A DNA stretch of 64,000 nt, from contig CALWFB010000001.1 of NCBI GenBank assembly GCA_944377485.1, forward strand, positions 94,095-158,094. The letters are read 5' to 3'. The notes beneath the pieces are model-generated. The model saw only the letters and a list, made by a program, of their open reading frames with translations. It did no database searches and was not told the origin of the DNA. The position numbers and the translations under genes were made by a program. Below, one piece after another: positions 2 through 56,800 of this stretch (the first letter of the stretch is position 1; each line of letters opens with the position of its first letter). The DNA comes from an uncultured Clostridia bacterium. GTDB lineage: Bacteria > Bacillota > Clostridia > Christensenellales > UBA1242.

Positions 2-3000
2 GCAACGGAAGATGCTGGCGCAAACATTCAGTACATAAATGTTGTAGGATATAGGAATGGTGTTCGAATTTCAGATTTGCCAGGAGTTAGACAATATAAC
101 AATAATCTTTATCAAGACTTTGTTTATATAATTCCACAAGTGGAAGGTAATGAAGGTTTCTATCAATTCAATATTACATACAGATATAACGATACTACAT
201 ATAATCAAACTTTTGAATTTTATATTCTATACGAAAGTTCCTATTCAAGAGATGTCAGTTTCGGAGGAACCTATACATATAGTACGACTCCTACATTAAA
301 CTGCTATAATACCACATTTAATACTGATACAAGTGGTGTGTATAGATATTATTTAGGAAAGACTTCTACAAATTATCCTACTCTTATCTATGATTATACT
401 AAATATAAAATGCAATATACTTTAACAGCAAATGGTAGGGTGACAACGTACGATTATGCTTATGTGACAAACACTACAATGGGAGGTGTGACTGCCAACC
501 TTGTTTGTACAATTACAAGTTCGTCAGGTACAAGGTATGAAACCTATTCATTATCTAATTATAATGCAGATAGTGAAAATAATATTGCTGTAATATTATT
601 GACTGAAATGGGTAATTACGATTTTTCGTTTAGTTATATCTACTCAGGATACAATGCTGGCGCGATGCCTGAAATGAATTTGACAATATCGAATCAATCG
701 CTCATTATGACTGGATTTGAATTGAAATATTCAAAAGCCAATTATCAAGAAGCGCAGATGAGATATTTAACGTTATCTAAAAATACAAATGATTTGGTAG
801 ATTTGATTGTTCCTAATGGTTATTTAGAAGATAGTACACCATCTATTTCGACTTTGGGTATAGTATATAATTATGATACAACGAGCCAAAACAAAGTGGG
901 AACAGTGGAAACTTATCAAGACGGAAATTTGACAGTTGATGATAGTTCTTCAACAACTACGACAGCGGATATTTTGGTTGGAGCGATAGACAATGCAACA
1001 AATAGATTGAATCTAACTTCTGTATCTGAGGAAACTATTAATAGTATAAACTATGAGAAAACCAATCAAGGTTCATTGTGGCTAAGTTCTAATGATACTT
1101 ATACACAAAATCAAAGTTTCTATTATTTTAGTAGAAATAAATTCACAAAATCTATTTTGCAAGATGAAAATACCAATGGATATTCGTTATATAGCAATCA
1201 AACCTCATTTAGTAGAACGGGCTACTATTTGGTGTTTATAAAAGTGGACGTTAATGGTATTAGTAGCGATGCTGCAGTTAATTATGACTATTATCAGGTA
1301 TTTGCATTCCAATATAGTACAGATACAGTAAATGTCAATGTCGTTGAATATGAAAATGATACCGAAGGCAAAGCAATCGGTTCAGGCGGATATACAAATA
1401 AAAATGTAAAAATTTCATGGACAGAGCCAGGAATATTTGAGAGAGCGATTAGTGCAAATTATTATAGTGTTCGCAATCAATTCTATAATAGAGAGCAATT
1501 ATTAAATACAACTCCTAATGTGTTAACTAATGGTCAAATCTTAGGGGACAACATTGCAAATAGAGAGGGTGCTAGCTTCCTTATTGAATTAAATAGCGAA
1601 GGACGAGCATCTTCATATCGTATGTTTACTATTGACCGTCAGCCAATCACAGGAGTATCTGTCTATTCTGTTGTTGCGACATCTAATGCTGATGGGAGTA
1701 CTGCTTATGAATTCAGAACTAACGTAAATGGTGAATATATTCGTGTTTCAAATTCAATTACGAATTCACTTGCTACAATTTTCTGGAATGATAAAAATAG
1801 TGGCGCAGGAATTACATTGACTTATACCTTTACACCATTTGTTAGAGATAGTTCCTTATCTCCTAGTCAGATATATCAATCAAGCACAGAAATTTGGCAT
1901 TCAACTAATTACAGATTAGGTACTACTGTTGGCTCATTTGATGATATTTATAAGGCAGATTCAATTGGTAGTGAAATTCCTTCTTCATCAGTATTGCGCA
2001 ACCAAGGTATTTATGTGTTCACATTGACAGATGACGCAGGAAATAGTTGTAAATATGTCTTTGTGATTGACTATACAGAGGCTTTCTTTGAAATTGATGG
2101 CAGTATGACCTCTCAATCATCCATGCTGTTTGGTGACGATGTTAGTATAAATGTCGGCACACATAAGGTCTTTGAATTATTTGGAAATCTTGACACTGCA
2201 TCAAATGCAATGACAGAGGAGCTTTATTCAATTATAAAAGCAAATAGTACAGATGAATATAGTGCTTTGGGATATTATGTGGAAAGTGATACGAATATTT
2301 CGGCATTAAATAGAATTTTCGCACTATTGAATAGTGACAATTCATACTATTTAAAAGTCCAAAACACATCTTTGACAGCATATTCAAATTTAGGTGTTTC
2401 AGATTCGACATTAAGCATTCATTCAATTACTGCAAACAACCATACGAGAACGATGAGATATCAAGAGAGTGCGTCAACAAGCATGATACGAGTTTTGTAT
2501 ATGTTGGGTGAGAATCAGGCTTATGATACTGCTAGAGACTCTAATTCGTATGTGACTATTGAAATAAATAAAGATAATTCACGAGGTTCAGTATATTATA
2601 GTCAAGATAGATTTGATATCAGCAATCTTGATAGTACTAATGTGACTAAATTAAACACTGGTAGCGATAATGAAAGTAGCACAGGTGTTCAATATAATGG
2701 AGTAGATGGAGCAGGTGCTACGAGTGACAATTATGTGGCATTCGTTTGGACACAGGGTTCTGGTTTATACGAAGTGGAAAGTGTTAGTTATCGACTTTAT
2801 GAACTTAATCTTTCAGAAGATAGTTTTGATTCAGATAAGTTCTATTATTATACATCAGTCAATTCAACCGATGTCATTTTGTATAACAGTGAAGGTCCGC
2901 AAAATGGAGCTACTTATGACGACAGTTCAGATAGATACTTTGCATTATTGAATGTGTCAGATGGGAAAACTGGTGCAGGACTATATGTCGTCACACGTAC

Positions 3001-6000
3001 TTATAGAGGAGACGATTCGACCGATTATGGTGATGATAAACGTGTTCAAAATTATTATTTTATAGTTGATAGAAATGAGATTATAGATGTTTCAAATGCA
3101 ATAAATGGTGGATATATCAATATCGGTTTGTTAGAAAAAGAAACGGAATATAATAACTTCTCTCAAATAGGTACTGAAACGGGAGTACTAAATTATATTG
3201 AAGATGGTATAGTAAATTCTTCATATAATGTTTATTTGCGTACTGATAAATTACCTGCTACTTTAAATGTTCCAGTTGGTAAATATTTCGGCGGTTCATA
3301 TGCTAGTACATACTATTCTGGTAGATTGGTATTTGATGTGTATTTTAGAGATACAGAAAATCAACTCAGTGGTTCAGACAGAGGAAAAACTATTAAATTA
3401 TTCAATGTTGATGTTGAAGATAGTGCCGATAGTTCAAATTACGTCAACGGATATTATCTAATTGATGTAGATGAATATTTATCAAATATATCTATGAGTT
3501 TGCGCAATAGATTTATACGTGCAGACAATGAAGGGGATTGGTTGTGTCTAAATGGTGATTACATCGTTGTGATTCGAGATTTAGTAGAAGGCACATCTGG
3601 TAATCATCAAAAAATTATAGGATTTAGATTGCAAAATAGTGTTCCGAATACAGACGTATACTCTGTCACTCAAAAAGATGACACGGTAGAAAATGCTATA
3701 TACGAAGCAGAACGTACGGCTGATGGATATGTATTAACTACTAGTGAAGAATTTGTAAAGATTGACTTGAATGCATATGATATTAATAATCTGAATGCTC
3801 AAGTAGATGTAGATTATTTAGTAGTCACTAGAACGTTGAATAATATTACTACTGATTATATCAATTATAGATATTCAAATACTGGTGGTGAATTCAATCT
3901 GGATAACAATTCTGATGTTGTTCAAAACATAATTGAAGATGGCAATTTAAGAAGAGTGATAACTTTAAATACGTATTTAAGAGATGCAAATGGTAATATT
4001 GATTTAGATAGTTTAAATCAGTCATTATATTACGACATAACAATTAGATATAAATTAAGTTCAGAAGACGCAAATGAAGCATATTTAAATTGTTATTACT
4101 ATTATGATGATAATGGAAATCTCATTACCTATTATGAAACAAAATATAGAGTAATCATTGATAGAATTCCACCTGAAAACAACATTAATTATTTAGTAGA
4201 AAATGATACGTTGGTAGAATATTATAATGAAGAAAATGGCGTTGAAATGTTTGAAAACAACGTATATGAAAACAATTCTGGCGTATACTTTGTTAATCAA
4301 TATACAGCATACTATCAAAATGCAGACGAAAGTAAAATTTATGCATTTAATGTTGATGACAATACTCCTTTTGATAATACTGATATAGCAAGAGTCTATT
4401 TCCGTGTGCTAGAAGGAGGTTTAAATGATGTCAATCTCAACTTGCCAGTCACTAACTATGCAAGTTATACATCTCGCACTGAATTGTCGAATGTTAACAC
4501 CTATGCTTCGCTATTCTCAAATAGTGAATATGGACAATACATAGAGATTTTAGAGCAAGATAGTGCGGGAAATACTACTCAATATGTGATTTTATACACG
4601 CATGAGGAAGATTTAGATGCATTAGAAATGACATTTAGTGCTACGATGGTTTCAGAGGGAGTCATCGCAGATAGTAATATAGACATCAATTTATTGGAAG
4701 ATAGTTTAAACAATTCATTGACAATATTTGATATCAATCTTCCTAATGAAGAAGTATTCAATGATACTATTGATAAGTTCTATCGATTTGAATTGATTAA
4801 TATGTCTGGTGAAATTTACTATATTAATACGAATGGTAGTACAGATTTCACAAATGATGGATTGGCACAAGACATAATTAATATGATTAAAAATGCAGGA
4901 CAAGGTAATTATATTTTACGCATTCATTCAAGGACGAACACATATTCTACAACTTTAAACTATTACGATAGAGATGAGAGAGTGGAACTGAATATCTTAA
5001 ATTTGGTTGAAAATGTAAATGGTAGATATAGAATAAACCTTGCAGGAGCAAATGTCGTTTCTAACGGAATCATGTACTATGCAGAACAAATCATTATTAG
5101 ATATAATGGCAATGAAAGTACATATATTTGCAGACCAGAAAATGGAAACTACAACTATTATTTACGCACAAACGATGGAGATGTATTGGTATCCAATATC
5201 ATATCTGATTTGAGTGATGGTACATATCAAATTGAGATGACAGATGCCTTTGGAGAGACCTCTTATCATAGATTCAATACTAGTGGAGAAAATTTCTATT
5301 CATTAGAATTTGAAGATGACAATTATTATGAATTATCAAATGTTTACTATTCATTTAAAGAAGCCACAATAAATTATGATAATGAAGTATATGACGTCAA
5401 TGTTATATACTCAATTAGCGGAATAAATAATCAAACTGTTGCATCAAATGTCAGTTCTGTCACTTATAGCGGAACAGAAATCATTGCAATTGATAGAACA
5501 AATGGTGTAATCAGAATAATTCCGTATTATGGTTCAAATTATTTAGGTGAAAATCTACGTGTGACTGTACAATTAATGTTTAATGGTGAAGCGGAATTTA
5601 TATATAATGTAGCGATAGATACTCGTACAGGAGCAGTTGCATTGAGGGACACCAATAACGCTAGTCAAAGCATGGACGTTGCTATCAATACCCCATATCA
5701 AGATACGACTTATTCGACCACTGGTTCTGGTACAATGAATTTAACTTGGAACAAATTAGAAAATGACTATTTTAATTATAATTATCTTCTACATGAAGAA
5801 ATGTTAAGCGGAGAATATGTCACGACTAATTTGTCTGACTATGACTCTTGGGTGATAAATACAGATTCGGACAGTACGGGCAGTTATAAATTTGAAATTG
5901 AAATTTATACAAAAGATGGCTTGTATTTAGGTAATAAAGTTTATTCATTCTCAGTGCAAGCAGTATTGAATCAGTTGTATTATGTACAGACAGGAAACAA

Positions 6001-7579
6001 TGAGGCAGTTGGACAAAATTCATCATTTACATTTAATGAATTGATAAACGATACCAATTTATCATCATTAGGCTTATCAATTAACAATATAGTGGGAAGT
6101 TTGCGCTTAACTTCTGCTGATGATTTGCCAAACACTAATATCCCATTGTATATTAGCAATGAAGATTTGTTTGTGGTTATTTCAACAGACCAAGGAGCTA
6201 GTCAAGTTTCTTATTCAATACAATTTGGTACATATAGATTTGAGATTTATCGTGTTTACACTAGTACATACAGTTTATATCTAGGTATTCTAGATGTCGC
6301 CGAGACCAATTCAATAGTTAACAATATTAAGATAAATACTAATGAATTATCTGTTAATACTAGTTTGTCATATACATATGCAGATACACAAAGTGGAACA
6401 TTCAATCTAAATTTTGACCAAATGATTACTATGAGCAACGCTTTGACTCAAAAGAATACGATTCTTTTAGACATTTATTATAACGATACCTTTGTTAGAA
6501 CAATTTATACTAATAATTTAGGTGAGAAGGTAAATTACTATATTGAAGGAAATGGCAAATATAGTTTTGTATTTAGAGATTTAGCAGGTAATACACATGT
6601 GTTTACGACCACTAATGGAGTAGTACAAAACAGTATTGACATTATGGTTTTGCGTGAAGTTGTTGTTAACGTAAATGGCGGAGCTCCAATAGATAATGCA
6701 TACTATAATGGTAGTGTTGAACTAAATGTATATAATCCATCAATGTATGATTTAGGTTCGATAGAACTATATGCAACAAGAAATGGAAATAGTTATAATC
6801 CAATCAAGTCGCAATATAATTATACATTCAATGAATATGGAACATATAGAGTGACTATTAGTGCAACCTATGGAGATGGAGAATACGTTTTAAGGAAAGT
6901 TGTGATATTTACAATTGTGAATGAGAATGAAGCTCGTGAATCAATAGATTTGACCAGTCTTGGTGGCTATACCATCAGCAAAGTGACTAATAATGTTGGC
7001 ACGGATATTACAACAAATTTCTTGAATATGTTAAACATCAATAGTGGAACAGATGGTATGTTATTGACATATGACAAGATGATAGCTAATAGTGGACAAC
7101 TAGGGATTTCAAGTGGAAAACAAAAATTCACATTGACATATATGGTTTCAGATGGCATTTATCCAGATAGAGAAGTGACGTTTAGTTTCACCATCAACAA
7201 CGAAATGCCAAATATAGAATGTTCATTAGCATCAGGGGAAAGTACAACTGATGGTTTCACTATCCGTTATAATCCAGGAATTATTTACGAACAAGTTGGT
7301 GATTCATTATTGTATATTAATGATATGTTGATTATGACTATTGATGAAAATTCCCCTACTGAATTAAGGCAAACTGAAATAACAGAAGAGAATAATGGAG
7401 CAGGTGATTATTATATCAGACTGATAAGTTCATCAGGAAATGTGATTTTGAGCTTCAAAGTTGAAATAAAAGAGCCATTAAATGTATGGGCGATTGTGAT
7501 AATAGTGGTTGTTTCTGTAATAGTGATTGCAGTAATAACAATTATAATAGTATTGAGAACTAGAATGAGGATTAGATAA
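2..7579 (+). CDS. Giant N/T/S/Y-rich modular surface protein, 5'-truncated by the window edge (2,525 aa visible), with a C-terminal transmembrane tail anchor
   Basis: The frame is open from nt 2, with no stop before the TTG at 77 used by the ORF track, so the N-terminus lies upstream of the window. Recurrent beta-sandwich-type module ends carry D-x-[AF]-G-[NE] motifs: TDDAGNSCKYVFVID (~nt 2030), EQDSAGNTTQYVILY (~4555), MTDAFGETSYHRF (~5240), FRDLAGNTHVFTT (~6575). The last ~32 aa are a hydrophobic helix (WAIVIIVVVSVIVIAVITIIIVL) plus a basic tail (RTRMRIR). No LPXTG. Confidence 0.85.
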   Translation, partial: ATEDAGANIQYINVVGYRNGVRISDLPGVRQYNNNLYQDFVYIIPQVEGNEGFYQFNITYRYNDTTYNQTFEFYILYESSYSRDVSFGGTYTYSTTPTLNCYNTTFNTDTSGVYRYYLGKTSTNYPTLIYDYTKYKMQYTLTANGRVTTYDYAYVTNTTMGGVTANLVCTITSSSGTRYETYSLSNYNADSENNIAVILLTEMGNYDFSFSYIYSGYNAGAMPEMNLTISNQSLIMTGFELKYSKANYQEAQMRYLTLSKNTNDLVDLIVPNGYLEDSTPSISTLGIVYNYDTTSQNKVGTVETYQDGNLTVDDSSSTTTTADILVGAIDNATNRLNLTSVSEETINSINYEKTNQGSLWLSSNDTYTQNQSFYYFSRNKFTKSILQDENTNGYSLYSNQTSFSRTGYYLVFIKVDVNGISSDAAVNYDYYQVFAFQYSTDTVNVNVVEYENDTEGKAIGSGGYTNKNVKISWTEPGIFERAISANYYSVRNQFYNREQLLNTTPNVLTNGQILGDNIANREGASFLIELNSEGRASSYRMFTIDRQPITGVSVYSVVATSNADGSTAYEFRTNVNGEYIRVSNSITNSLATIFWNDKNSGAGITLTYTFTPFVRDSSLSPSQIYQSSTEIWHSTNYRLGTTVGSFDDIYKADSIGSEIPSSSVLRNQGIYVFTLTDDAGNSCKYVFVIDYTEAFFEIDGSMTSQSSMLFGDDVSINVGTHKVFELFGNLDTASNAMTEELYSIIKANSTDEYSALGYYVESDTNISALNRIFALLNSDNSYYLKVQNTSLTAYSNLGVSDSTLSIHSITANNHTRTMRYQESASTSMIRVLYMLGENQAYDTARDSNSYVTIEINKDNSRGSVYYSQDRFDISNLDSTNVTKLNTGSDNESSTGVQYNGVDGAGATSDNYVAFVWTQGSGLYEVESVSYRLYELNLSEDSFDSDKFYYYTSVNSTDVILYNSEGPQNGATYDDSSDRYFALLNVSDGKTGAGLYVVTRTYRGDDSTDYGDDKRVQNYYFIVDRNEIIDVSNAINGGYINIGLLEKETEYNNFSQIGTETGVLNYIEDGIVNSSYNVYLRTDKLPATLNVPVGKYFGGSYASTYYSGRLVFDVYFRDTENQLSGSDRGKTIKLFNVDVEDSADSSNYVNGYYLIDVDEYLSNISMSLRNRFIRADNEGDWLCLNGDYIVVIRDLVEGTSGNHQKIIGFRLQNSVPNTDVYSVTQKDDTVENAIYEAERTADGYVLTTSEEFVKIDLNAYDINNLNAQVDVDYLVVTRTLNNITTDYINYRYSNTGGEFNLDNNSDVVQNIIEDGNLRRVITLNTYLRDANGNIDLDSLNQSLYYDITIRYKLSSEDANEAYLNCYYYYDDNGNLITYYETKYRVIIDRIPPENNINYLVENDTLVEYYNEENGVEMFENNVYENNSGVYFVNQYTAYYQNADESKIYAFNVDDNTPFDNTDIARVYFRVLEGGLNDVNLNLPVTNYASYTSRTELSNVNTYASLFSNSEYGQYIEILEQDSAGNTTQYVILYTHEEDLDALEMTFSATMVSEGVIADSNIDINLLEDSLNNSLTIFDINLPNEEVFNDTIDKFYRFELINMSGEIYYINTNGSTDFTNDGLAQDIINMIKNAGQGNYILRIHSRTNTYSTTLNYYDRDERVELNILNLVENVNGRYRINLAGANVVSNGIMYYAEQIIIRYNGNESTYICRPENGNYNYYLRTNDGDVLVSNIISDLSDGTYQIEMTDAFGETSYHRFNTSGENFYSLEFEDDNYYELSNVYYSFKEATINYDNEVYDVNVIYSISGINNQTVASNVSSVTYSGTEIIAIDRTNGVIRIIPYYGSNYLGENLRVTVQLMFNGEAEFIYNVAIDTRTGAVALRDTNNASQSMDVAINTPYQDTTYSTTGSGTMNLTWNKLENDYFNYNYLLHEEMLSGEYVTTNLSDYDSWVINTDSDSTGSYKFEIEIYTKDGLYLGNKVYSFSVQAVLNQLYYVQTGNNEAVGQNSSFTFNELINDTNLSSLGLSINNIVGSLRLTSADDLPNTNIPLYISNEDLFVVISTDQGASQVSYSIQFGTYRFEIYRVYTSTYSLYLGILDVAETNSIVNNIKINTNELSVNTSLSYTYADTQSGTFNLNFDQMITMSNALTQKNTILLDIYYNDTFVRTIYTNNLGEKVNYYIEGNGKYSFVFRDLAGNTHVFTTTNGVVQNSIDIMVLREVVVNVNGGAPIDNAYYNGSVELNVYNPSMYDLGSIELYATRNGNSYNPIKSQYNYTFNEYGTYRVTISATYGDGEYVLRKVVIFTIVNENEARESIDLTSLGGYTISKVTNNVGTDITTNFLNMLNINSGTDGMLLTYDKMIANSGQLGISSGKQKFTLTYMVSDGIYPDREVTFSFTINNEMPNIECSLASGESTTDGFTIRYNPGIIYEQVGDSLLYINDMLIMTIDENSPTELRQTEITEENNGAGDYYIRLISSSGNVILSFKVEIKEPLNVWAIVIIVVVSVIVIAVITIIIVLRTRMRIR

Positions 7580-23306: not shown

Positions 23307-25679
23307 TTATCTCAATTTAGCATTTATGGTTTTTATCTCCGCATCTAAAACTTTATTCACAATAGGCGCAATTTCATTCTCGCTCAAAGGCTTTTCACCT
23401 TGTCGAATGACAAGTGTCATAGCAACACTCTTTTTGTCCTGACCTATTGAGTCTGAGCAATAAATGTCAAAGATTTTGCATTCAACAATGTTTTGTCTAT
23501 CAGCTTTGATTGCGGTTTCAATGATTTTGCTCGCAGGGATATCTTTATCTACAACGATGGCTAAATCACGCATAATGTAAGGCAATTTTTCTGGTGCATT
23601 TCCCGTGTGTCTATCGTTTAGTCGTGAAATTACATTTGTTAGGTTTATTTCTGCTATGAATACTTTTTGATTGATTTCAAAATTCTTTCTAATAATAGGG
23701 TGAATTTCCCCAATTATACCAATTGGACGATTGTATAAATAAATGTCCGCACAAATTCCCGGGTGCATCTGTTTATGTTGACTTGCTCGATATTCTAGTT
23801 TTATTCCAATACTGGATAGTATTTTATTTAAGTCATTTTTTAGTTTATAGAAATCATAATCGCCAGTTAGACTGAGGCATAAATTATTGTGTTCATCAGG
23901 TAATTCAGTAATCGGAAGTTGTTTAGGAATGAACACACGAGCTAATTCAAACAACTTTAAATCTTTGTTCCCTTGCTTTAAATTGAATGAAATTGTATTT
24001 AACATGTTAGGGATAAGGCTTCTTCGCATGATGCTGTAATCTTGTCCTATTGGATTGGCGATTTTTATATGTTCATTTTCGTCCATTAGAGCAGCAGCAA
24101 TCATCTTAGGTCCGCCAAATTGCCAGGTCAAAGTTTCATTATATCCGAATAAGGCAGTTGTGATTTTTAGTTTATTTATATTTTTTTGTTCAACAGTCAA
24201 TTCTCCAACGGTAGAGAAGTCTGTGGCAGTACTATCGTCAATACTGATTTTATCCAAGCCGTAAATTCTGCCCACTTCTTCACATATATCGCAATCACGT
24301 TCAATATCGGTTCTCTCTTCTGGAATCGTGCTAATAAGAGTGTCGCCACGTGCAATCGTCTGAATTCCTAGTCTATTTAGAATTTCAATCATTATAGATT
24401 TATCTATATTAAGGCCTAATCTATCACAAATATTTTGTACTTTACTTTCTACTGTTCTCAATTTTGGCAATCCAGAATTTTTATCGACTGTCACACTTGA
24501 AATATCGCCGGCATTTAATTTTGATATAATATTTAATGCACGTTTCATACCAATTTCTGTATTACCAATATTTACACCTTTTGAATATCTTATGGAACTA
24601 TCACTGCTTAATCCTAATGCGTGTGAACTGCGTCTAATATTTGCAAAATGAAAATTAGCAGATTCGAGCAATACATTTTTTGTATCAGGATAAGTACCGC
24701 TATCTACACCCCCCATAATTCCTGCAATGACCATAGGTTCAACAGCATTCGCAATCACCAAGTTATTTTCATTTAAAGTGTATTCATTATTGTCGAGTGT
24801 GAGCAATTTTTCTTGATTTTTAGCACGTCTGACGATGATTTTGTCACCTTTAATTTTAGATAAATCAAATGCGTGCATAGGTTCACCCACTTCTAGTAGA
24901 ACATAGTTAGTGATATCTACATAAAGAGAGTGTGGAGTATGGTCAAGTAGAGTCAGTCTCCTTTGCATCCAATCAGGAGATGCTCCATTTTTAACGTTCT
25001 CTACAATAGTGGCTTCATATCTTGGGCAAAGAGCATAGTCTAATACTTCTACATCAATTTTTTTGTTTGAATTTGTTTTATATGATAAATCAAGAGGTTT
25101 TAATGGAAGATTGAATATTGCACTAATTTCTTTTGCAATTCCATAGATTGAATTACAATCAGCACGATTTGGTAGCACATTGATGTCTAAAACGATTTCA
25201 TTAAGTTTCAACACTTCTGCAATAGGAGTGCCAACTTTTAATCCGTCTTCAAGAATTAGTAGTCCGTCCACTTCGGCATTAGGATAAATTGAGTTGTCAA
25301 TACCTAATTCTTCACCTGCACAGAACATACCATTGCTTTCAACTCCACGCAAGTTTCCACTTTTTATTTGAACGCCATTAGGAAGATTTGCACCAACTAG
25401 GGCAAGGGGTACAAAATCACCTGTTTTCATATTCGTTGCATGTGTGACAATTTGAGTAGAACCAAATCCATAGTCCGCTGAACATATCACAAGTTTATCA
25501 GCATTTGGGTGTGGGCGTATGTCGGTAATTTTTGACACCACCACTTTATCCAAGCCTTTTGCTTTGTCAATTACTTCTTCTACTTCAAAACCAGCATCGG
25601 TGAGCCCTTTTGTTAATGTGCGTAATTCTATATCACTAGTGTCCACATAATCATTTATCCATGATAATAAAACTTTCAT
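23307..25679 (-). CDS. pheT: Phenylalanine--tRNA ligase beta subunit
   Basis: 790 aa. N-terminus MKVLLSWINDYV... (typical PheT), tRNA-binding, B3/4, B5 and anticodon-binding-like segments. Downstream of pheS on the same strand. Confidence 0.95.
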   Translation of the reverse strand: MKVLLSWINDYVDTSDIELRTLTKGLTDAGFEVEEVIDKAKGLDKVVVSKITDIRPHPNADKLVICSADYGFGSTQIVTHATNMKTGDFVPLALVGANLPNGVQIKSGNLRGVESNGMFCAGEELGIDNSIYPNAEVDGLLILEDGLKVGTPIAEVLKLNEIVLDINVLPNRADCNSIYGIAKEISAIFNLPLKPLDLSYKTNSNKKIDVEVLDYALCPRYEATIVENVKNGASPDWMQRRLTLLDHTPHSLYVDITNYVLLEVGEPMHAFDLSKIKGDKIIVRRAKNQEKLLTLDNNEYTLNENNLVIANAVEPMVIAGIMGGVDSGTYPDTKNVLLESANFHFANIRRSSHALGLSSDSSIRYSKGVNIGNTEIGMKRALNIISKLNAGDISSVTVDKNSGLPKLRTVESKVQNICDRLGLNIDKSIMIEILNRLGIQTIARGDTLISTIPEERTDIERDCDICEEVGRIYGLDKISIDDSTATDFSTVGELTVEQKNINKLKITTALFGYNETLTWQFGGPKMIAAALMDENEHIKIANPIGQDYSIMRRSLIPNMLNTISFNLKQGNKDLKLFELARVFIPKQLPITELPDEHNNLCLSLTGDYDFYKLKNDLNKILSSIGIKLEYRASQHKQMHPGICADIYLYNRPIGIIGEIHPIIRKNFEINQKVFIAEINLTNVISRLNDRHTGNAPEKLPYIMRDLAIVVDKDIPASKIIETAIKADRQNIVECKIFDIYCSDSIGQDKKSVAMTLVIRQGEKPLSENEIAPIVNKVLDAEIKTINAKLR

Positions 25680-25705
25680 ATTTTTCTCCTTAAAAGTTAT
25701 TTGTT

Positions 25706-25976
25706 AATTATAATTACTTAAATTGCTTAATAAATCTTTATCATTTACTGTCAATCATGAGATTGCTAGGAAACTTCGCCAGATTTATAATCAATTATAA
25801 TTACTTAAATTGCTTAATAAATCTTTATCATTTACTGTCAATCATAGAAATTGCCAGGAAACTTCGCCAGATTTATAATCAATTATAATTACTTAAATTG
25901 CTTAATAAATCTTAATCATTTACTGTCAATCATAGAAATTGCCAGGAAACTTCGTCAGATTTATAATCAATTATAA
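25706..25976. repeat. Tandem array, 3 x 87/88 bp, in the pheS-pheT spacer; each unit reiterates the pheS 3' end
   Basis: Units at 25706-25792, 25793-25880 and 25881-25968 are near-identical (a few mismatches). A fourth partial unit (25969 to ~26000) is the authentic pheS end. Each unit starts with aattataattacttaaattgcttaataaatct, which is 8 nt downstream of the stop plus the reverse complement of the codons R-F-I-K-Q-F-K-stop. Confidence 0.95.
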
Positions 25977-26999
25977 TTACTTAAATTGCTTAATAAATCT
26001 GACATCGTTTTCGAACATGACTTTTGCATTAGGAATTTTGTAGCGCATCTTTGGGAAACGGTCAAAACCAAATCCAAATGCATATCCACTATATTCGTTA
26101 GGGTCAATTCCGTTCATTTCAAGGACATGTGGATGAATCATGCCTGCACCTAGAATTTCATATTGACCAACACCTTTACATGCTGAACAACCTTTACCTT
26201 TACATACATTACATTCTGCATCGACCTCTACACTTGGTTCAGTGAAAGGGAAGTATGAGGCTCTAAATTTTGTCTTGGTACTTTCGCCAAGATATTTTTT
26301 CAAAATTAAACTCAAATCGTGTTTCAAGTCTGCAAGACTGACCTTTTTATCGATATATATACCTTCTAATTGATAGAATGCAGGAGTGTGAGTTGCATCA
26401 ATCTCGTCTTTTCTGAAAACTCTACCAAAGCTGAACACTTTGAAAGGAGGTTTAATTTTTTCCATTGCTCGTGGCTGAGTATTAGAGGTTTGTGTACGAA
26501 GTAAAATATCGTTTGTTATATATAAACTATCTTGCATATCACGAGAAGGGTGGTCTTTTGGAACGTTTACAAGTTCGAAGTTGTATTTATCATAATCAAT
26601 TTCTGGACCATCTATTTGACTAAATCCCATGCCATTCAAAATCTCTGCCATGCGAATAAAATCGATTGATATAGGGTGCAAAGCTCCAATATCTTCTTGA
26701 TTTAGGTCAAGAGTGACGTCAATTTTTTCTTTCATCAACTTTTCTTCAAGTTCGGCATCTTGCAAAAAGGTTTCTTTGCTAGATATCATTTTTTCAACTT
26801 CCTGTTTTGCAGAATTTAAAAGTTGTCCCATAGTTTGTTTTTCTTCTGGGCTAACTTCTTTCATGAAGCGGAAAAGTTGAGTTAATTTTCCATTTTTACC
26901 TAAAATTTCTACACGCAAAGATTGACACTCAGCACTAGTATTTATCTTATTTAAAGTGTCCGTTGTATATTTTATTATTTCTTCAATTTTATCTTTCAT
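25977..26999 (-). CDS. pheS: Phenylalanine--tRNA ligase alpha subunit
   Basis: 340 aa, class-II motifs (FRKDEIDATHTPAFYQLEG; GAGMIHPHVL; GYAFGFGFDRF). AAGGAG RBS. Preceded by a T-box leader. Confidence 0.95.
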   Translation of the reverse strand: MKDKIEEIIKYTTDTLNKINTSAECQSLRVEILGKNGKLTQLFRFMKEVSPEEKQTMGQLLNSAKQEVEKMISSKETFLQDAELEEKLMKEKIDVTLDLNQEDIGALHPISIDFIRMAEILNGMGFSQIDGPEIDYDKYNFELVNVPKDHPSRDMQDSLYITNDILLRTQTSNTQPRAMEKIKPPFKVFSFGRVFRKDEIDATHTPAFYQLEGIYIDKKVSLADLKHDLSLILKKYLGESTKTKFRASYFPFTEPSVEVDAECNVCKGKGCSACKGVGQYEILGAGMIHPHVLEMNGIDPNEYSGYAFGFGFDRFPKMRYKIPNAKVMFENDVRFIKQFK

Positions 27000-27038
27000 A
27001 TTTGCTCCTTTTTAATATGCTATCAATAATGTGGTATC

Positions 27039-27071
27039 AAAATAAAAAACTCGCCCTAATATTAGGACGAG
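27039..27071 (-). terminator. T-box attenuator (intrinsic terminator) upstream of pheS
   Basis: Minus strand reads CTCGTCCTA-atat-TAGGGCGAG followed by TTTTTTATTTT. 9-bp stem with one G-U pair. It directly follows the T-box sequence. Confidence 0.8.
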
Positions 27072-27106
27072 GGAATCTCGTGGTACCACCTAATTGCGCT
27101 CACAAA

Positions 27107-27343
27107 CTTCGTCAATTCTAGTCCGCATTACTTCGTTATGCGAACAACGACTTTTACTCGTTTGTTCGCTAATCCCACTCGCATTTAGATAACACTCGTG
27201 GGAACCCTGAAAAAGCTTCGTCAATTCTAGTCCGCATTACTTCGTTATGCGAACAACGACTTTTACTCGTTTGTTCGCTAATCCCACTGCGTATCTTGTG
27301 ACACTTGTGGGAACCCTTAGTACTGCACAGCTTTCCGCATTAC
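27107..27343. repeat. 109-bp tandem duplication (2 full copies plus a partial third) inside the T-box leader
   Basis: Two 73-bp cores are 100% identical (27107-27179 and 27216-27288). The flanking ~36 bp are related but diverged (cactcgtgggaaccct vs cacttgtgggaaccct). A third partial occurrence of tccgcattac is at 27334-27343. Confidence 0.9.
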
Positions 27344-27587
27344 AATTTGCTAATAGAAGTTTGATTAAGTTTATGAACCTTCATTACATTTTCACAGTTT
27401 TGTCTGGCGACTCTTAATCACATTATTGATTAAAAATGTGTTTACCGAGTGCAACTCAGATGCTGAAATTCGCTCACAGTTTGAACATAAGTGACTTTCT
27501 TCCAATGGACACTCTCTCAGAATGAAAACTGCTCACTACTTACACATCGTCATAGTTTTTATTGATGCAAATTAACTTTGCATTAAT

Positions 27588-27616
27588 ATTTTATCAATAT
27601 AAAATTGCTTTGTCAA
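27588..27616 (-). promoter_or_regulatory. Sigma-A promoter of the pheST T-box leader
   Basis: Minus strand reads TTGACA (27616-27611), 17 nt, TAAAAT (27593-27588), with TGA immediately upstream of the -10 (extended -10). Confidence 0.65.
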
Positions 27617-53882: not shown

Positions 53883-56800
53883 ATGTCAATACTGAAAAAC
53901 AAAAAGTTTTATATGTGTTTGATACTTGCGTTCGTGTCGCTACTTATTTTTGGTTGTGAAAACAAAACGCCAGTTGAAGATATTTCTTTTAAAGAAGATG
54001 AAATAGTTCTTTTGGTAGGAGAGTCGTATACTCCTAATGTTTCTGTCACTCCTTCATATGCTACTGATTCATCATATACTTTAACTAGCAACAATTCAGC
54101 AGTAGTTGCTATTAATGGCAATTCTATCTTGGCAGTATCGGAAGGCAATACTACAATTCGTGTTAGGTCAAATGATAATAACCTTATTGAAGATGTGATG
54201 ACCGTCATAGTGAGAAAAAATAAAACAACATTAGACACTCCTAGAAATTTGACATATAATGCATCTACACAAACTTTTACATTTGACAATGTTAATAATG
54301 CAACAAGTTATACAATCAGAATTAATGGACATGAAATCAATCTTGGCAATAGCAATACATATTCTCTTTTTCAATATGATTTAGAATTCGGAAATGCTTT
54401 TGATACAGTATTGACGGTTCAAGTTATGGCAAATGCTCCTACTTACAGTCAGGCATTTATAAATAGTGCATTTAGTAGTGAATTAATCATCTATCAAAAT
54501 AGTCCAGTTGTTTCTGCAAGTATAACTAATGGAACTTTAACTTTTGAAAAAAATTCCAACTCCACTAATTATTCAATATTGATTAATGGTGATGAGTTTA
54601 CACGTGGCACAAGTAATGTCATTGACTTGACAAAAATACCTGATGTCTATGTAGGAAATAATGTGACTGTTGGAATTGTTTCACTTGTAAACGATGATGT
54701 TAAGACACGTAATGGGAATAATGTAGTATATTATGATTCAATTAGTTATGATATTGATGCCGCAGTGCTTGATGTGACTGATATTGCAATGACAATGTCG
54801 ACGATTAGCTGGAACAATGTCAACAATGCGAGTTCTTATTCAATTTATATAGATAATGAACGAGTTGCCAATACTATTAATAATTATTTTGATTTAAAAA
54901 CCCTTGCTGATTTTGAAGATATTATATATAAAGATGGTGGTTATCTTATTCGTGTTGAACCTGAAATTGGGGTAAATAGTGTTAATGTTTTAAAATCAGA
55001 AATGTTGAGTGAAGAATTGAGTTTCAATAGATTTGACATGCCGAACTTATCAGCGAGTGGCAATTTAATATCATGGCAAGCAGTGGAATACGCAAATTCA
55101 TATGCTATTGAAATAACTTATGATGAAATGATTGTTAGGACAACTTCTATTTCTAATTCATTTTCATTAGATAACTATCCTGCCGGAACGAATTATACAT
55201 TCAAAATTTATGTAGAAGGGCAAACTTTTGGTGATGTCAATTATCTGTCTTCACCTGTTGCATCTATACAAATAAATAAAAAATCCGATGTTGAGTTGAG
55301 TATTGTTGATTATGTGCTAACTTTCAATAGTCAAATTGGTGATAGTTATAAAATAGAGTTTAATACAATTGATGATACTATCAGTGAGACGATTGAAGCA
55401 GATAGTGATGTATTTGAATTCGATTTGTCTACTTATTCTTTCATGGCAGGGCAGAATGAAGTGGTGGTCACGCATTTAGGGGATAACTCAACAGCGTTTG
55501 ACAGCAATACTACAACTATTCAATTCATTCAACTAGAAAGCATTGACGACATTGAAATAACTAATGGAGTGGCAAAAGTTAATGTCAGTGAAATTAATGA
55601 ATCTGCTGAGATTAAGTTCACAATAACTGGTGAAAAGGGAACAAATATTCAAATTTCGGGCAATGAAGTAAGCCTAAATTCGCAAGATTCAAGCCTAGAA
55701 AATTATCTTCAAAGCGATAATTATACTATTACGGTATATGTTTATGGTGATGGTCAAAATACATTCTCAGTAGGTGGGAAAGTTGCAACAATTTGTGCAT
55801 CAAAACCTTTTGTGGTATTAGGTGTACCTAGTGTTAGTCTATTAGATAAAGATAGTGCAAGTTTAACAATTTCAGATGTCTTGGGAGCTGAGAAATTTAA
55901 TATTTACACTTTGACCGATGATGAATATATATTGACTGAGGAATTAATTCAAAATAATTATGATTTCACATTAAATAATGGAGAAATGTCAATCAAAATT
56001 CAAACAGTTGGAGATGGAACAAATTACTTAAATTCTGTTTTGTCAGATGAAATAAAAATAATTCGTTTAAGCACCCCTTTGTTGTCGTATGATAGCACAA
56101 CAGATATAATAACCAGAACAGACAGTAATCCTAGTGAGTATGTAAAAAACTTTACATTTAAGTTTAATAATGTTGAAAATGACTATGCTTTTGACAATAG
56201 TCCGTTTACAGAATTTGTGGTTGGCGAGAATATATTGACATTGAAAGCCAATGCAGTAGATAGCAGTAGTAATATATTCTATCTAAATTCTTTTGAATAT
56301 CAGTTGACTATTGACATGATAGATAATTCAACGGATATTACGATTGATGGAAATAATAGACTTGTAATTACTCCAAAGAATCAAGATATAGAATATAATA
56401 TTAACCTTATAATAACTATTGATGAAGAAATGAGTTTTGAAGGTAATGACGGAGTTTTAACTTGCGGAGATGACACGTTAAATTATATTTATGAAGACGG
56501 AAGTTATTATATTGATTTGCTGAACCCTGATTATACTCCAATAATTGCTGAAATGAATAAGAATTTCAATGTTAGAGTAAAATTTATTAGTGATAGTACA
56601 GGAGAAGACAGTACTGCAAATAGTGCTTTCACTGCTGATAAATCTATAACATTATTGACTAAAACAACAGCAGGCAGAGAAGGACAATATATAACTATTT
56701 CAAATATTGTTCAAACTAATACATATGTTAATTATGCATTATTGATTAATAATACTTATTGTTTAAACTTAGATGGTTCAACAGTGGTTGACAGCGATAA

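Follow-up and report, generated by a model that had tools for sequence, protein, structure and literature searches.

The pheS and pheT genes, encoding the alpha and beta subunits of PheRS, are located one behind the other on the minus strand of a 64,000-nt stretch of DNA from an uncultured Clostridia bacterium (hereafter referred to as the window) and are separated by a spacer that carries a repeat array (Table 1). The initial annotation had regarded this 297-bp spacer as unusually long, and comparison bears this out, the corresponding spacer being shorter than 35 nt in 45 of the 53 distant bacteria. A single promoter and terminator pair was detected for the operon, upstream of pheS in the T-box leader region; the array is therefore expected to be co-transcribed with both genes and would form a part of the T-box-controlled pheST mRNA. 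A terminator-like site (a G+C-rich stem followed by a U-run) was sought on the minus strand across the spacer and none was detected by a scan that does recover the T-box terminator, in agreement with the earlier view that the array is unlikely to be a terminator. Searches of Rfam 15 returned zero matches in the spacer, whether at the gathering threshold or at E<=10, the T-box matches being confined to the 5' leader. Every pheT examined possesses a strong Shine-Dalgarno (SD) sequence of its own.

Table 1. Features of the pheS-pheT locus in the window (E, pheS end; HP1 and P2, predicted hairpins; CM, covariance model).
Feature	Position	Strand	Details
pheS (PheRS alpha subunit, 340 aa)	25977..26999	-	Pfam tRNA-synt_2d 2.5e-79 and Phe_tRNA-synt_N
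pheT (PheRS beta subunit, 790 aa)	23307..25679	-	B3_4, B5, tRNA_synthFbeta, FDX-ACB, tRNA_bind
pheS-pheT spacer	25680..25976	-	297 nt
Short native spacer with pheT SD AACAAATAACTTTTAAGGAGAAAAAT	25680..25705	-	Identical in empty-site strain L060
pheS promoter and T-box leader region	27000..27616	-	Promoter 27616-27588; terminator 27071-27050
E0, true pheS end with 8 nt of 3' flank (first 32-mer)	25969..26000	-	Exact match
Filler 1, 56 nt: inverted pheS-end copy, then GAAGUUUC, P2 and tail	25913..25968	-	
E copy 1, untranslated exact 32-mer	25881..25912	-	
Filler 2, 56 nt	25825..25880	-	Module 2: HP1 25859-25921, P2 25835-25857; CM match 25834-25920, 73.1 bits
E copy 2, exact 32-mer	25793..25824	-	
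Filler 3, 55 nt, variant CTAGCAATC-TCATG	25738..25792	-	Module 3: HP1 25771-25833, P2 25748-25769; CM match 25747-25832, 72.6 bits
E copy 3, orphan without inverted partner, directly 5' of pheT ribosome-binding region	25706..25737	-	
HP1, module 1	25947..26010	-	MFE fold; inverted-copy alignment z=5.8; covariation; CM match 25922-26009, 94.8 bits
P2, module 1 (CUGGCAAUU/GAUUGACAG, loop UCUAU)	25923..25945	-	Begins right after GAAGUUUC (25946-25953)

The 88-bp, threefold tandem array described by the initial annotation was recovered with Tandem Repeats Finder at 25706..26000 (period 88, 3.4 copies, 97% matches, score 555). Its head-to-tail units of 87/88 nt do repeat the pheS stop region, as had been proposed: the 32-mer AGATTTATTAAGCAATTTAAGTAATTATAATT, which comprises the RFIKQFK codons, the TAA stop codon and 8 nt of flank, is present in four exact copies, for which the chance expectation is zero. 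These four pheS ends (E) alternate with three fillers of 56/55 nt that differ mutually by a few SNPs and one indel, N fillers thus being accompanied by N+1 pheS-end copies. The imperfect inverted repeat noticed at each junction, CAGATTTAT/ATAAATCTG around the palindrome AATTATAATT, was likewise found, and the order within the array is E, the reverse complement of E, the short hairpin P2 and again E, with the palindromes AATTATAATT and P2 at the junctions. The window accordingly holds three modules and one orphan E, behind which the pheT ribosome-binding site is intact. The 56-bp portion of the unit, earlier described as its non-pheS part, consists largely of the inverted pheS terminus followed by a second hairpin. 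A decayed direct copy of the pheS codons upstream of E was also considered as the source of the filler and rejected, local alignments scoring no higher than shuffles (z about 0). The layout differs from the constant repeats and different spacers of CRISPR-like arrays, the three 56-nt 'spacers' being 97% the same and homologous across species.

Dispersal of the unit over many loci was also assessed. The filler and the motif-plus-hairpin were found only in the array, in the 64 kb of the window and within 3 kb on either side of pheS in relatives, and neither a regular expression for the motif-plus-hairpin nor a covariance model detected anything convincing elsewhere in the window or the flanks. 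In the window, the model recovers only the three modules (94.8, 73.1 and 72.6 bits); with the orphan pheS-end copy set aside, the next match on the same strand reaches 18 bits (E 0.9), and the reverse strand of the palindrome 30 bits.

The suspicion that the locus is variable in copy number was substantiated by assemblies in which PheS is 99-100% identical and which carry no unit (L060), one unit (L054, L063) or three units (the window, L239). A second species shows one unit in L233 as against three in L232. Comparison of the precise empty site of L060 with the filled sites defines the insert as 56 nt plus a 32-nt duplicate. The window, 100% identical to scaffold_22 of ENA ERZ28615289, is a short-read-style metagenome scaffold, and other assemblies break or gap at such repeats; five Logan contigs, for example, end exactly at the branch point forced in the k=31 graph by the 32-mer. 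The exact copy number of three comes from one assembly, and the assembler could in principle have inflated a true locus with one unit or none. However, the three units are set apart by specific SNPs and an indel, and the variant specific to unit 3 recurs beside pheT, behind another pheS-end copy, in an independent assembly (ERZ2916164 NODE_35095, L240) that begins inside a pheS-end copy. Moreover, many independent MAGs of related species also carry multi-unit arrays. An assembly artefact is therefore highly improbable.

Reiterated pheS ends were identified at the pheS-pheT junction in 17 of the 35 clade loci (Ca. Onthoplasma/Christensenellales, PheS at least 79% identical) as compared to none of the 51 distant bacteria. 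The module is thus clade-specific and restricted to this junction, with zero to three modules per locus among related species and strains, and about half of the related species lack it. The pheS end itself is bimodal, falling into types E1 and E2 that are ~70% identical to each other; the synonymous differences between the two cluster exactly in the 30 nt that are repeated, the left edge being sharp, and the adjoining 60 nt are near-invariant. The coding sequence is preserved by all the differences among end copies, including those in mixed arrays (E1/E2, L010, L235), where differing synonymous pheS ends, all of them coding-competent, stand side by side. The most downstream copies are the most degenerate in L009 and L015, and the array of L235 terminates in a truncated filler without a final pheS-end copy. 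Unrelated small cargo genes were also observed at the pheS-pheT junction of relatives.

Direct repeats of a gene 3' end flanking an insert, together with a precise empty site (L060), raise the question of whether the array is the scar or miniature of a site-specific integrative element that targets the pheS 3' end and brings its own replacement end, the displaced ends having been stacked over successive integrations by att-site accretion in the manner of CIMEs. The coding-competent synonymous ends of the mixed arrays, the greater degeneracy of the furthest-downstream copies (L009, L015) and the cargo genes of relatives would all suit such a scar. However, the insert measures just 56-70 nt, half of which is an inverted copy of the target, and the hairpins vary in sequence, whereas a recombinase site would have to be conserved. 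No integrase or transposase is present near the locus among the 25 annotated ORFs of the window, and neither these ORFs nor the spacers and context in relatives revealed a recombinase or large element between pheS-end copies. The pheS end and the filler are absent from phage, plasmid and IMG/VR contigs, so that a phage or plasmid attP was rejected, and a scan of IMG/VR with a 16-nt degenerate motif returned single chance matches only (L089-L168). The G.U bias described below also points to RNA. An integrative origin is considered unlikely.

The first ~30 nt of the filler form an imperfect inverted copy of the pheS terminus, and each module is therefore predicted to fold into an interrupted hairpin of ~24 bp, HP1, with the stop codon at its tip. 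In module 1, the 5' strand of HP1 is formed by the last 12 codons of pheS, and the hairpin is composed of AAAC:GUUU, an internal loop GAU x GAA, GUCAGAUUUAU:AUAAAUCUGAC and CAAUU:AAUUG, the stop codon being the apex. Since HP1 starts within pheS, any duplication of the module reiterates the pheS stop region. Folding of the spacer, one of the checks suggested at the outset, predicts HP1 followed directly by P2 in 12 species (MFE folds, z down to -5.0), and the pheS end finds its reverse complement in the 5' half of the filler for 12 of the 13 module types (z 2.5-7.7).

Comparison of the spacer with that of relatives, likewise suggested, revealed a clade-wide family of modules with compensatory base changes in both helices. 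The main covariation count was made on related sequences in an N-padded hand alignment fitted to the structure, as a plain MAFFT alignment misplaced P2, and the counts are consequently biased towards the structure; in this alignment, pairing extends to 87.8% of the cells, as against 69.8% for shuffles (0/500) and 32-46% after sliding. For P2 the paired fraction is 95.6%, and eight of its nine pairs are doubly changed; in the P1 stem, the middle helix of HP1, seven of the 12 pairs are doubly changed. RNAalifold, run on an unfitted alignment, found P1 de novo with 8 compensatory pairs. The Arg/Phe codons AGA-UUU, AGA-UUC, CGU-UUC and AGG-UUU are matched by AAAUCU, GAAUCU, GAAACG and AAACCU, respectively, and each arm in the mixed arrays is complementary only to the E immediately upstream. 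G.U pairs outnumber A.C mismatches on the sense strand by 24 to 5 in about 10 independent events, which favours the sense RNA strand. The 8-nt GAAGUUUC was considered as a motif recognised in trans (a tRNA-Phe anticodon/codon mimic, T-box specifier-like or anti-SD) and set aside in favour of its simpler assignment to the 3' strand of the HP1 base: its GUUU pairs with the invariant Glu-Asn codons GAAAAC and its GAA faces GAU. Both sides of the HP1 base have changed together in L010 (AAU with AUUU), and no conserved GAA was found in the P2 loops. The element is real and fast-changing, and probably RNA-structural in nature.

The absence of the module from about half of the relatives and from the near-identical L060 indicates that it is dispensable, which makes a neutral or selfish DNA palindrome a strong rival to an RNA function; the variable copy number fits a neutral or selfish element equally. 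Such a palindrome would have been founded by a replication error of the inverted-triplication type that joined the forward pheS end, an inverted copy and a forward copy at short palindromes, with the RNA structure being incidental and without host function. Arm-to-arm template switching would then keep the complementarity and unequal crossing-over would alter the copy number. The forward-inverted-forward order, whose two junctions carry the palindromes AATTATAATT and P2, respectively, is in line with this origin, as are the patchy presence, the degenerate copies and the occurrence of 0-3 copies within a species; the orphan E, for which an RNA function gives no explanation, would be its natural by-product. 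Short inverted repeats are known to give rise to inverted triplications (PMC4689423), and DNA template switching homogenises inverted-repeat arms, yields clustered substitutions and can maintain complementarity without selection at the RNA level (PMC8604942), so that the synonymous clustering of E1 and E2 would be expected from template switching filtered by coding selection. However, the GAU/GAA internal loop of HP1 is conserved and has been 'corrected' to a perfect palindrome in no module type, and the P2 sequences are wholly different between the types yet remain paired and abut HP1 throughout. The filler, including P2 and the tail, shows no detectable homology to pheS upstream of E, where a simple triplication would restart. 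The excess of G.U over A.C on the sense strand (24:5) and the conservation of the fillers, which share 92-95% identity between species that are only 52-61% identical at the four-fold sites of pheS, a level far above that of neutral sites, also point away from neutrality. A neutral or selfish palindrome therefore appears possible but somewhat doubtful.

Decoupling of pheS and pheT translation, one of the roles proposed in the initial annotation, or a relay between the two, was supported neither by modelling of accessibility nor by a search for mini-ORFs that would couple them. The arms could in principle relay termination on pheS to the pheT ribosome-binding site by pairing alternatively with the upstream or the downstream pheS-end copy, or mini-ORFs could deliver ribosomes to it; the N+1 pheS-end copies per N fillers, the position of the last copy just 5' of the pheT SD as in empty sites, and the window MFE fold, which pairs some arms with the downstream copy, are compatible with such a device. 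However, masking of the pheS end shifts the predicted accessibility of the pheT ribosome-binding site by <=0.07 in 12 species, and the structural relay was rejected on this basis. Mini-ORFs ending at each pheS-end copy were rejected too, in-frame starts before the copies being inconsistent across species and absent from the window. The arms of mixed arrays complement the upstream copy only, each pheT has its own strong SD, and L235 ends in a truncated filler instead of a pheS-end copy. A translational device is accordingly very unlikely.

Control from the opposite strand was weighed for each window unit, as each carries a near-consensus sigma-70-type promoter in that orientation from which an antisense RNA against the pheS 3' end might start. 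These are TTGCCA-17-TATAAT (11/12 matches) at 25851-25879 and 25939-25967, and TTGCTA-17-TATAAT at 25763-25791; they equal the real pheS promoter in their match to a consensus that may not be that of the host. The hexamers are, however, not conserved, as judged by inspection, in L003, L017, L009 or the A/B-type modules, and the helices show the G.U bias of the sense strand, so that antisense control has very little to recommend it.

The 88-nt unit is best explained, at what is judged an even chance, as a clade-specific intercistronic 'pheS-terminus palindromic module' in the pheST mRNA that likely acts as a stabiliser or processing barrier. Each module would comprise E, the last 10-12 codons and the stop codon of pheS; the imperfect inverted copy of the E codons that forms HP1 with its conserved purine internal loop (GAU opposite GAA); and the hairpin P2 abutting the HP1 base. 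The array would grow and shrink through unequal recombination or slippage between the exact 32-nt repeats, extra copies being by-products that are not required. HP1 and P2 together may constitute an optional intercistronic barrier, as in selective RNA processing and stabilisation (SRPS). The pheS segment would have its 3' end shielded by HP1, a candidate endonuclease site would lie in the G/A-rich, single-stranded joint 5' of P2, and the pheT segment would have P2 as its 5' hairpin. A stable stem-loop that lacks a U-tract is indeed predicted where the upstream cistron ends, within a single transcription unit, and the structure is compatible with a role in mRNA stability or processing. In Clostridium, transcript ratios are set by 3' stem-loops and intergenic processing sites, preferentially for subunits of heteromultimers (PMC4423207), and for RNase Y of B. 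subtilis the preferred site is G|A within unstructured, AU-rich RNA that is followed by a structure (PMC11780869). As PheRS is an alpha2-beta2 enzyme, skewing of the alpha:beta mRNA ratio would be without obvious benefit.

The bimodal pheS end with its edge exactly at the repeat boundary, the coding-preserving differences and the filler identity of 92-95% against ~55-60% at neutral sites hint at a further, rather speculative reading with a small probability, namely that the modules are self-propagating gene-end cassettes. Each would consist of a synonymous pheS terminus, its matched inverted arm and the hairpin, and would pass between species with sharply defined edges. An essential gene may thereby have its working 3' end replaced time and again from a set of 'spare ends' kept downstream, in what may be an analogue of cassette systems that is non-coding and operates without a recombinase. 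The RNA fold that is conserved, with its stop-codon tip, purine internal loop and abutting hairpin, could also be a recognition element for a trans-acting factor.

The terminal codons of an essential and highly conserved gene can serve as one strand of a non-coding structure, which can be copied, stacked and swapped without change in the protein. Should the hairpins adjust how stable each half of the pheST mRNA is, the array would give this uncultured gut lineage a compact dial, naturally variable in copy number, for the stoichiometry of the subunits, and would be a test case for the birth of intercistronic stabilisers. If they are functionless, the locus would illustrate cleanly, in nature, how inverted triplication and template switching on a small scale shape synonymous coding sites, with a bearing on how clustered synonymous changes and 'covariation' are read elsewhere. 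In practical terms, the number of units at the locus (0-3) marks strains, and short-read assemblies of these bacteria can be expected to break there.

Several known systems share features with the pheS module. REP/BIME, ERIC, Correia, RUP and BOX elements are small palindromes co-transcribed in operon spacers, sometimes in tandem and variable between strains, and some of them are known to stabilise the upstream mRNA or to act as RNase targets; each such family shares a consensus and is scattered over the genome in tens to hundreds of copies. The pheS module resembles them in its small palindromic units, arranged in tandem in an operon spacer and variable among strains, but is found at one junction (64 kb plus flanks) and is built from the end of the neighbouring gene. 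The occurrence at many loci that characterises dispersed repeats (REP/BIME, MITE, MIRU) was not seen in the 64 kb or within +-3 kb in relatives. In att-site duplications and CIMEs, a gene 3' end is found in direct repeats, replacement ends are synonymous at the protein level and accretion occurs in tandem. Direct repeats of the pheS 3' end similarly flank the insert, as the comparison with L060 demonstrates, but the 56-70-nt insert is partly an inverted target and no recombinase, large element or attP-bearing phage or plasmid was found.

The mycobacterial MIRU VNTRs are likewise tandem 50-100-nt units in operons, between co-transcribed genes that are strain-polymorphic in copy number and whose insertion leaves the expression of the neighbouring gene preserved; they occupy many loci and contain a small ORF coupled to the downstream start codon (PMC12548453). 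The pheS array, by contrast, occupies one locus and has no consistent ORF, the window units being without an in-frame start, and its unit copies the upstream stop region and forms a palindrome with it. Inverted triplications, tandem-inversion duplications and quasi-palindrome template switching share the forward-inverted-forward order and the short-palindrome junctions, and homogenisation of the arms could explain both the matched changes and the clustered synonymous substitutions of the pheS end; those on record are either amplifications on the kilobase scale or single mutational events (PMC4689423, PMC8604942). The pheS unit differs in being 60-90 nt long and in having been retained by many species; its internal loop is conserved, it has a second hairpin that co-varies independently, and its third copy does not resume at the original position of the second palindrome. 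The SRPS stem-loops of the Clostridium cip-cel operons (PMC4423207, PMC8219983) are similarly situated at a cistron 3' end in the polycistronic mRNA of a heteromultimeric complex, in a clostridial setting, and resemble the pheS module in having no U-tract and in being flanked by a single-stranded joint that is a candidate cut site. The pheS module differs from them in being present in only about half of its clade, in being tandemly reiterated along with the gene end, and in a hairpin that takes its 5' strand from the coding end of the upstream gene.

The array reported in the initial annotation, three 88-bp units between pheS and pheT, is real and contains more structure than was noticed there. 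It was recovered by Tandem Repeats Finder within a pheS-pheT gap of 297 nt, and on the gene strand the spacer reads [32][56][32][56][32][55][32], followed by AACAAATAACTTTTAAGGAGAAAAAT-ATG. The 32-mer AGATTTATTAAGCAATTTAAGTAATTATAATT spans the seven terminal pheS codons, the TAA stop and 8 nt of flanking sequence, and is exact in 4/4 copies. The three segments between the copies (fillers) show a single indel and a few SNPs among them. The surrounding DNA is AT-rich and chromosomal (G+C ~31%), with genes for sporulation and germination (SpoIIE, GerA/B/C), tilS, cysS and replication-loader genes, and no transposase or integrase is found among the 25 annotated ORFs of the window. The spacer holds no terminator-like site, in agreement with the initial annotation, and the sole strong gene-strand promoter lies 5' of the T-box leader.

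Coordinates of the features in the window and in the related loci (L-numbers)
Feature	Locus	Position	Strand	Details
pheT	window	23307-25679	minus	
Spacer tandem array	window	25706-26000		period 88, 3.4 copies, 97% matches, score 555
Unit promoters, near-consensus sigma-70-type	window	25763-25791, 25851-25879, 25939-25967	plus	TTGCCA or TTGCTA, 17 nt, TATAAT
pheS	window	25977-26999	minus	
pheS T-box leader	window	27000-27588		
8-mer CGAAGTTT in leader	window	27104-27114		just 5' of T-box antiterminator
Leader tandem duplication	window	27107-27317	minus	109 nt x 1.9, 93%
Giant ORF	window	77-7579	plus	2500 aa
Giant ORF	window	53883-62729	plus	2948 aa
Assembly gap in 3-unit array	L232	~2580-2676		~96 N
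ASCH-domain ORF at pheS|pheT junction	L221	2532-2921		129 aa, also in L222 and L223
Unannotated ORF at pheS|pheT junction	L018	4023-4582		~180 aa, NUDIX-like by eye
Small ORF at pheS|pheT junction	L021	~2412-2687		
pheS-pheT spacer	L024	1455-1504		49 nt

The spacer is normally short, as had been presumed, measuring <35 nt in 45/53 distant bacteria. Scanning a single genome from each species gave 23 close relatives (uncultured Clostridia, Ca. Onthoplasma and Christensenellales MAGs; PheS 80-96% identical) with spacers of 8 to 559 nt, many of the long ones carrying one to three units built as in the window; two more species were added from further contigs. The pheS end recurs downstream in 17/35 loci of the clade vs 0/51 loci of bacteria with PheS <=66% identical. 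In a distant Clostridia MAG (L024, PheS 49% identical), the pheS end has a significant inverted counterpart in the spacer (z 3.9) and no direct one, which may represent the same principle in a simple form with one hairpin.

The pheS|pheT junction of other relatives carries unrelated small genes (L221-L223, L018 and L021), and it appears to be an insertion hotspot. In some relatives (L211-L220, L234 and L235) a methyltransferase gene lies ~10 nt 5' of pheS, leaving no space for a T-box leader, and the regulation of pheST therefore varies within the clade.

Dissection of 27 modules, each consisting of the pheS end (E) and a filler, revealed the same order of components in 27/27: E, linker, arm, 8-mer, P2 (a short second hairpin) and the next E. 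E has the consensus D-[V/I]-R-F-I-x-Q-F-K-stop. Downstream of it lie an AT-rich linker, the arm, whose sequence complements the D-V-R-F-I codons, and the 8-mer GAAGUUUC (or a closely similar sequence). P2 begins directly after the 8-mer, and 4-6 nt separate its end from the next E copy. Over its first 25-33 nt, the filler imperfectly repeats the pheS terminus in inverted orientation (z = 2.5-7.7 in 12/13 module types when the reverse complement of the terminus was aligned to the filler). Minimum-free-energy folds of the first module from 12 species give a long interrupted hairpin, HP1, and then P2, separated by <=3 unpaired nucleotides in 9/12. HP1 of the window has a base AAAC:GUUU, an internal loop with GAU opposite GAA, a middle stem GUCAGAUUUAU:AUAAAUCUGAC (P1 in the pairing counts), an upper helix CAAUU:AAUUG and the stop codon at its tip. 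The conserved 8-mer is the 3' strand of the HP1 base, and is conserved because it lies opposite the invariant Glu-Asn-Asp codons GAA-AAC-GAU; in L010, the Asn codon is AAU and AUUU replaces GUUU. Since HP1 starts inside pheS, copying of the module also copies the stop region, which explains the reiteration first noticed.

Pairing was counted mainly on a hand-made, N-padded alignment fitted to the structure, in which 87.8% of cells are paired vs 69.8% in column shuffles (0/500 reach 87.8%) and 32-46% when the partners are slid by 1-3 columns. On the same alignment P2 is 95.6% paired with both sides changed in 8/9 pairs, and both sides are changed in 7/12 pairs of P1. Because of this fitting, RNAalifold was run on a plain MAFFT alignment of 12 diverse modules, where P1 was predicted unaided with 8 compensatory pairs. 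The synonymous Arg/Phe variants of E (AGA-UUU, AGA-UUC, CGU-UUC and AGG-UUU) face the arm partners AAAUCU, GAAUCU, GAAACG and AAACCU, respectively. In mixed arrays (L010, L011, L013, L014, L062 and L235) every arm complements the E immediately preceding it, not the one that follows, so the module has the form [E + filler]. G.U pairs are more frequent than A.C pairs (24 vs 5, from few independent events), which speaks for the sense RNA rather than the antisense strand. A two-hairpin structure is kept at the pheS stop through sequence turnover, in a T-box-controlled operon without an internal terminator.

A covariance model built on an unfitted alignment matched only the three modules in the 64-kb window (94.8, 73.1 and 72.6 bits); excluding the orphan E copy, the last 32-mer upstream of the pheT ribosome-binding region, the next same-strand match scored 18 bits (E-value 0.9), and the reverse strand of the palindrome 30 bits. 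Searches of the window with the filler, the 9-mer GAAGTTTCC and a motif-plus-hairpin regex found no site beyond the three modules. The spacer has no match in Rfam, nor do the spacer, pheS ends and fillers in phage, plasmid and IMG/VR collections.

Copy number differs between near-identical strains. Among loci with 99-100% identical PheS, L060 is an empty site (…AAGTAA TCATAATT AACAAATAAC…), L054 and L063 have one unit and the window three, while in a second species L233 has one and L232 three with an assembly gap, such counts from short-read MAGs being soft at this junction. The gap in L232 lies where the scaffolder failed to resolve the repeat. The window is identical to ENA ERZ28615289 scaffold_22; five Logan contigs stop 6 nt past the stop codon, the exact branch point of a k=31 graph, and an independent contig (L240) begins within an E copy, with the unit-3-specific variant adjoining pheT. 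Unequal recombination or slippage between the exact 32-nt direct repeats is the most evident candidate cause of these changes.

In one subclade the final 30 nt of pheS occur in two versions, E1 (GATGTGAGATTTATTGAACAATTTAAATAA) and E2 (GACATAAGGTTTATAGAGCAGTTCAAATAG), both encoding D[V/I]RFIEQFK, which share ~70% identity with one another, against 90-100% within a type. The pheS bodies there are 85-90% identical, the 27 nt just 5' of E are nearly invariant, and the E1/E2 boundary is the exact left edge of the reiterated segment. Untranslated E copies differ from the real end almost only synonymously, and between species with only 52-61% identity at pheS four-fold sites, fillers of the same type reach 92-95%. 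Any of three explanations would fit these patterns: the module as a whole may be under strong constraint, species may recently have exchanged modules, or template switching between the arms may have been filtered by coding selection (PMC8604942). A palindrome acting purely at the DNA level, originating by inverted triplication, maintained by template switching and devoid of function, is a possible but rather doubtful explanation of the module.

In the mRNA, the module may act as an intercistronic stability or processing barrier, a reading about as likely as not. In Clostridium cellulolyticum, transcript ratios are set by stem-loops at cistron 3' ends and intergenic processing sites, preferentially for subunits of heteromultimers (PMC4423207). 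B. subtilis RNase Y has a preference for G|A where unstructured, AU-rich RNA is followed by structure (PMC11780869), and the G/A-rich joint at the HP1 base, just before P2, matches this loosely. Against a required function, the module is absent from half of the clade and from one near-identical strain, its copy number drifts, and PheRS requires both subunits in equal amounts; confidence in a barrier is therefore no higher. An att scar, a translational relay, an antisense promoter and an artefact jointly take up the small probability left.

The unit promoters point antisense into the pheS 3' end. Their agreement with the consensus is no poorer than that of the genuine pheS promoter; on inspection, modules of other species do not preserve them. 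The only other large-period tandem repeat of the window splits the T-box leader, and both repeats flank pheS; Rfam detects two sub-threshold halves (27.9 and 26.7 bits) in this leader, and a full-length T-box (47.6 bits) in the unduplicated leaders of the conspecific L054 and L055. Other members of the clade have leader repeats of their own: L011 (117 nt x 2.2), L060 (105 nt x 3.0) and L003, where two copies lie 108 nt apart. Besides occurring in the spacer modules, the 8-mer CGAAGTTT recurs just 5' of the T-box antiterminator in the pheS leaders of L002, L017, L011, L013 and L003, in the last twice and directly 5' of a hairpin; chance, shared origin and a shared recognition site are candidate explanations.

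Searching the literature for repeats between pheS and pheT, and for the organism by name, returned nothing, and we know of no described element in which the terminal codons of a gene, an inverted copy of them and a further hairpin are combined and reiterated in tandem over a clade. The module lacks the defining features of intrinsic terminators, CRISPR arrays and the coupling ORFs of MIRUs. Unlike dispersed repeat families it occupies one locus only in the 64 kb searched, and unlike the scars of integrative elements it has no recombinase at its locus and no attP in the phage and plasmid collections. It is an intercistronic palindromic repeat or VNTR of putative function, resembling SRPS stem-loops and REP-type stabilisers in its putative mode of working, MIRU-type VNTRs in its variation, and, as a miniature, inverted triplications in its layout.
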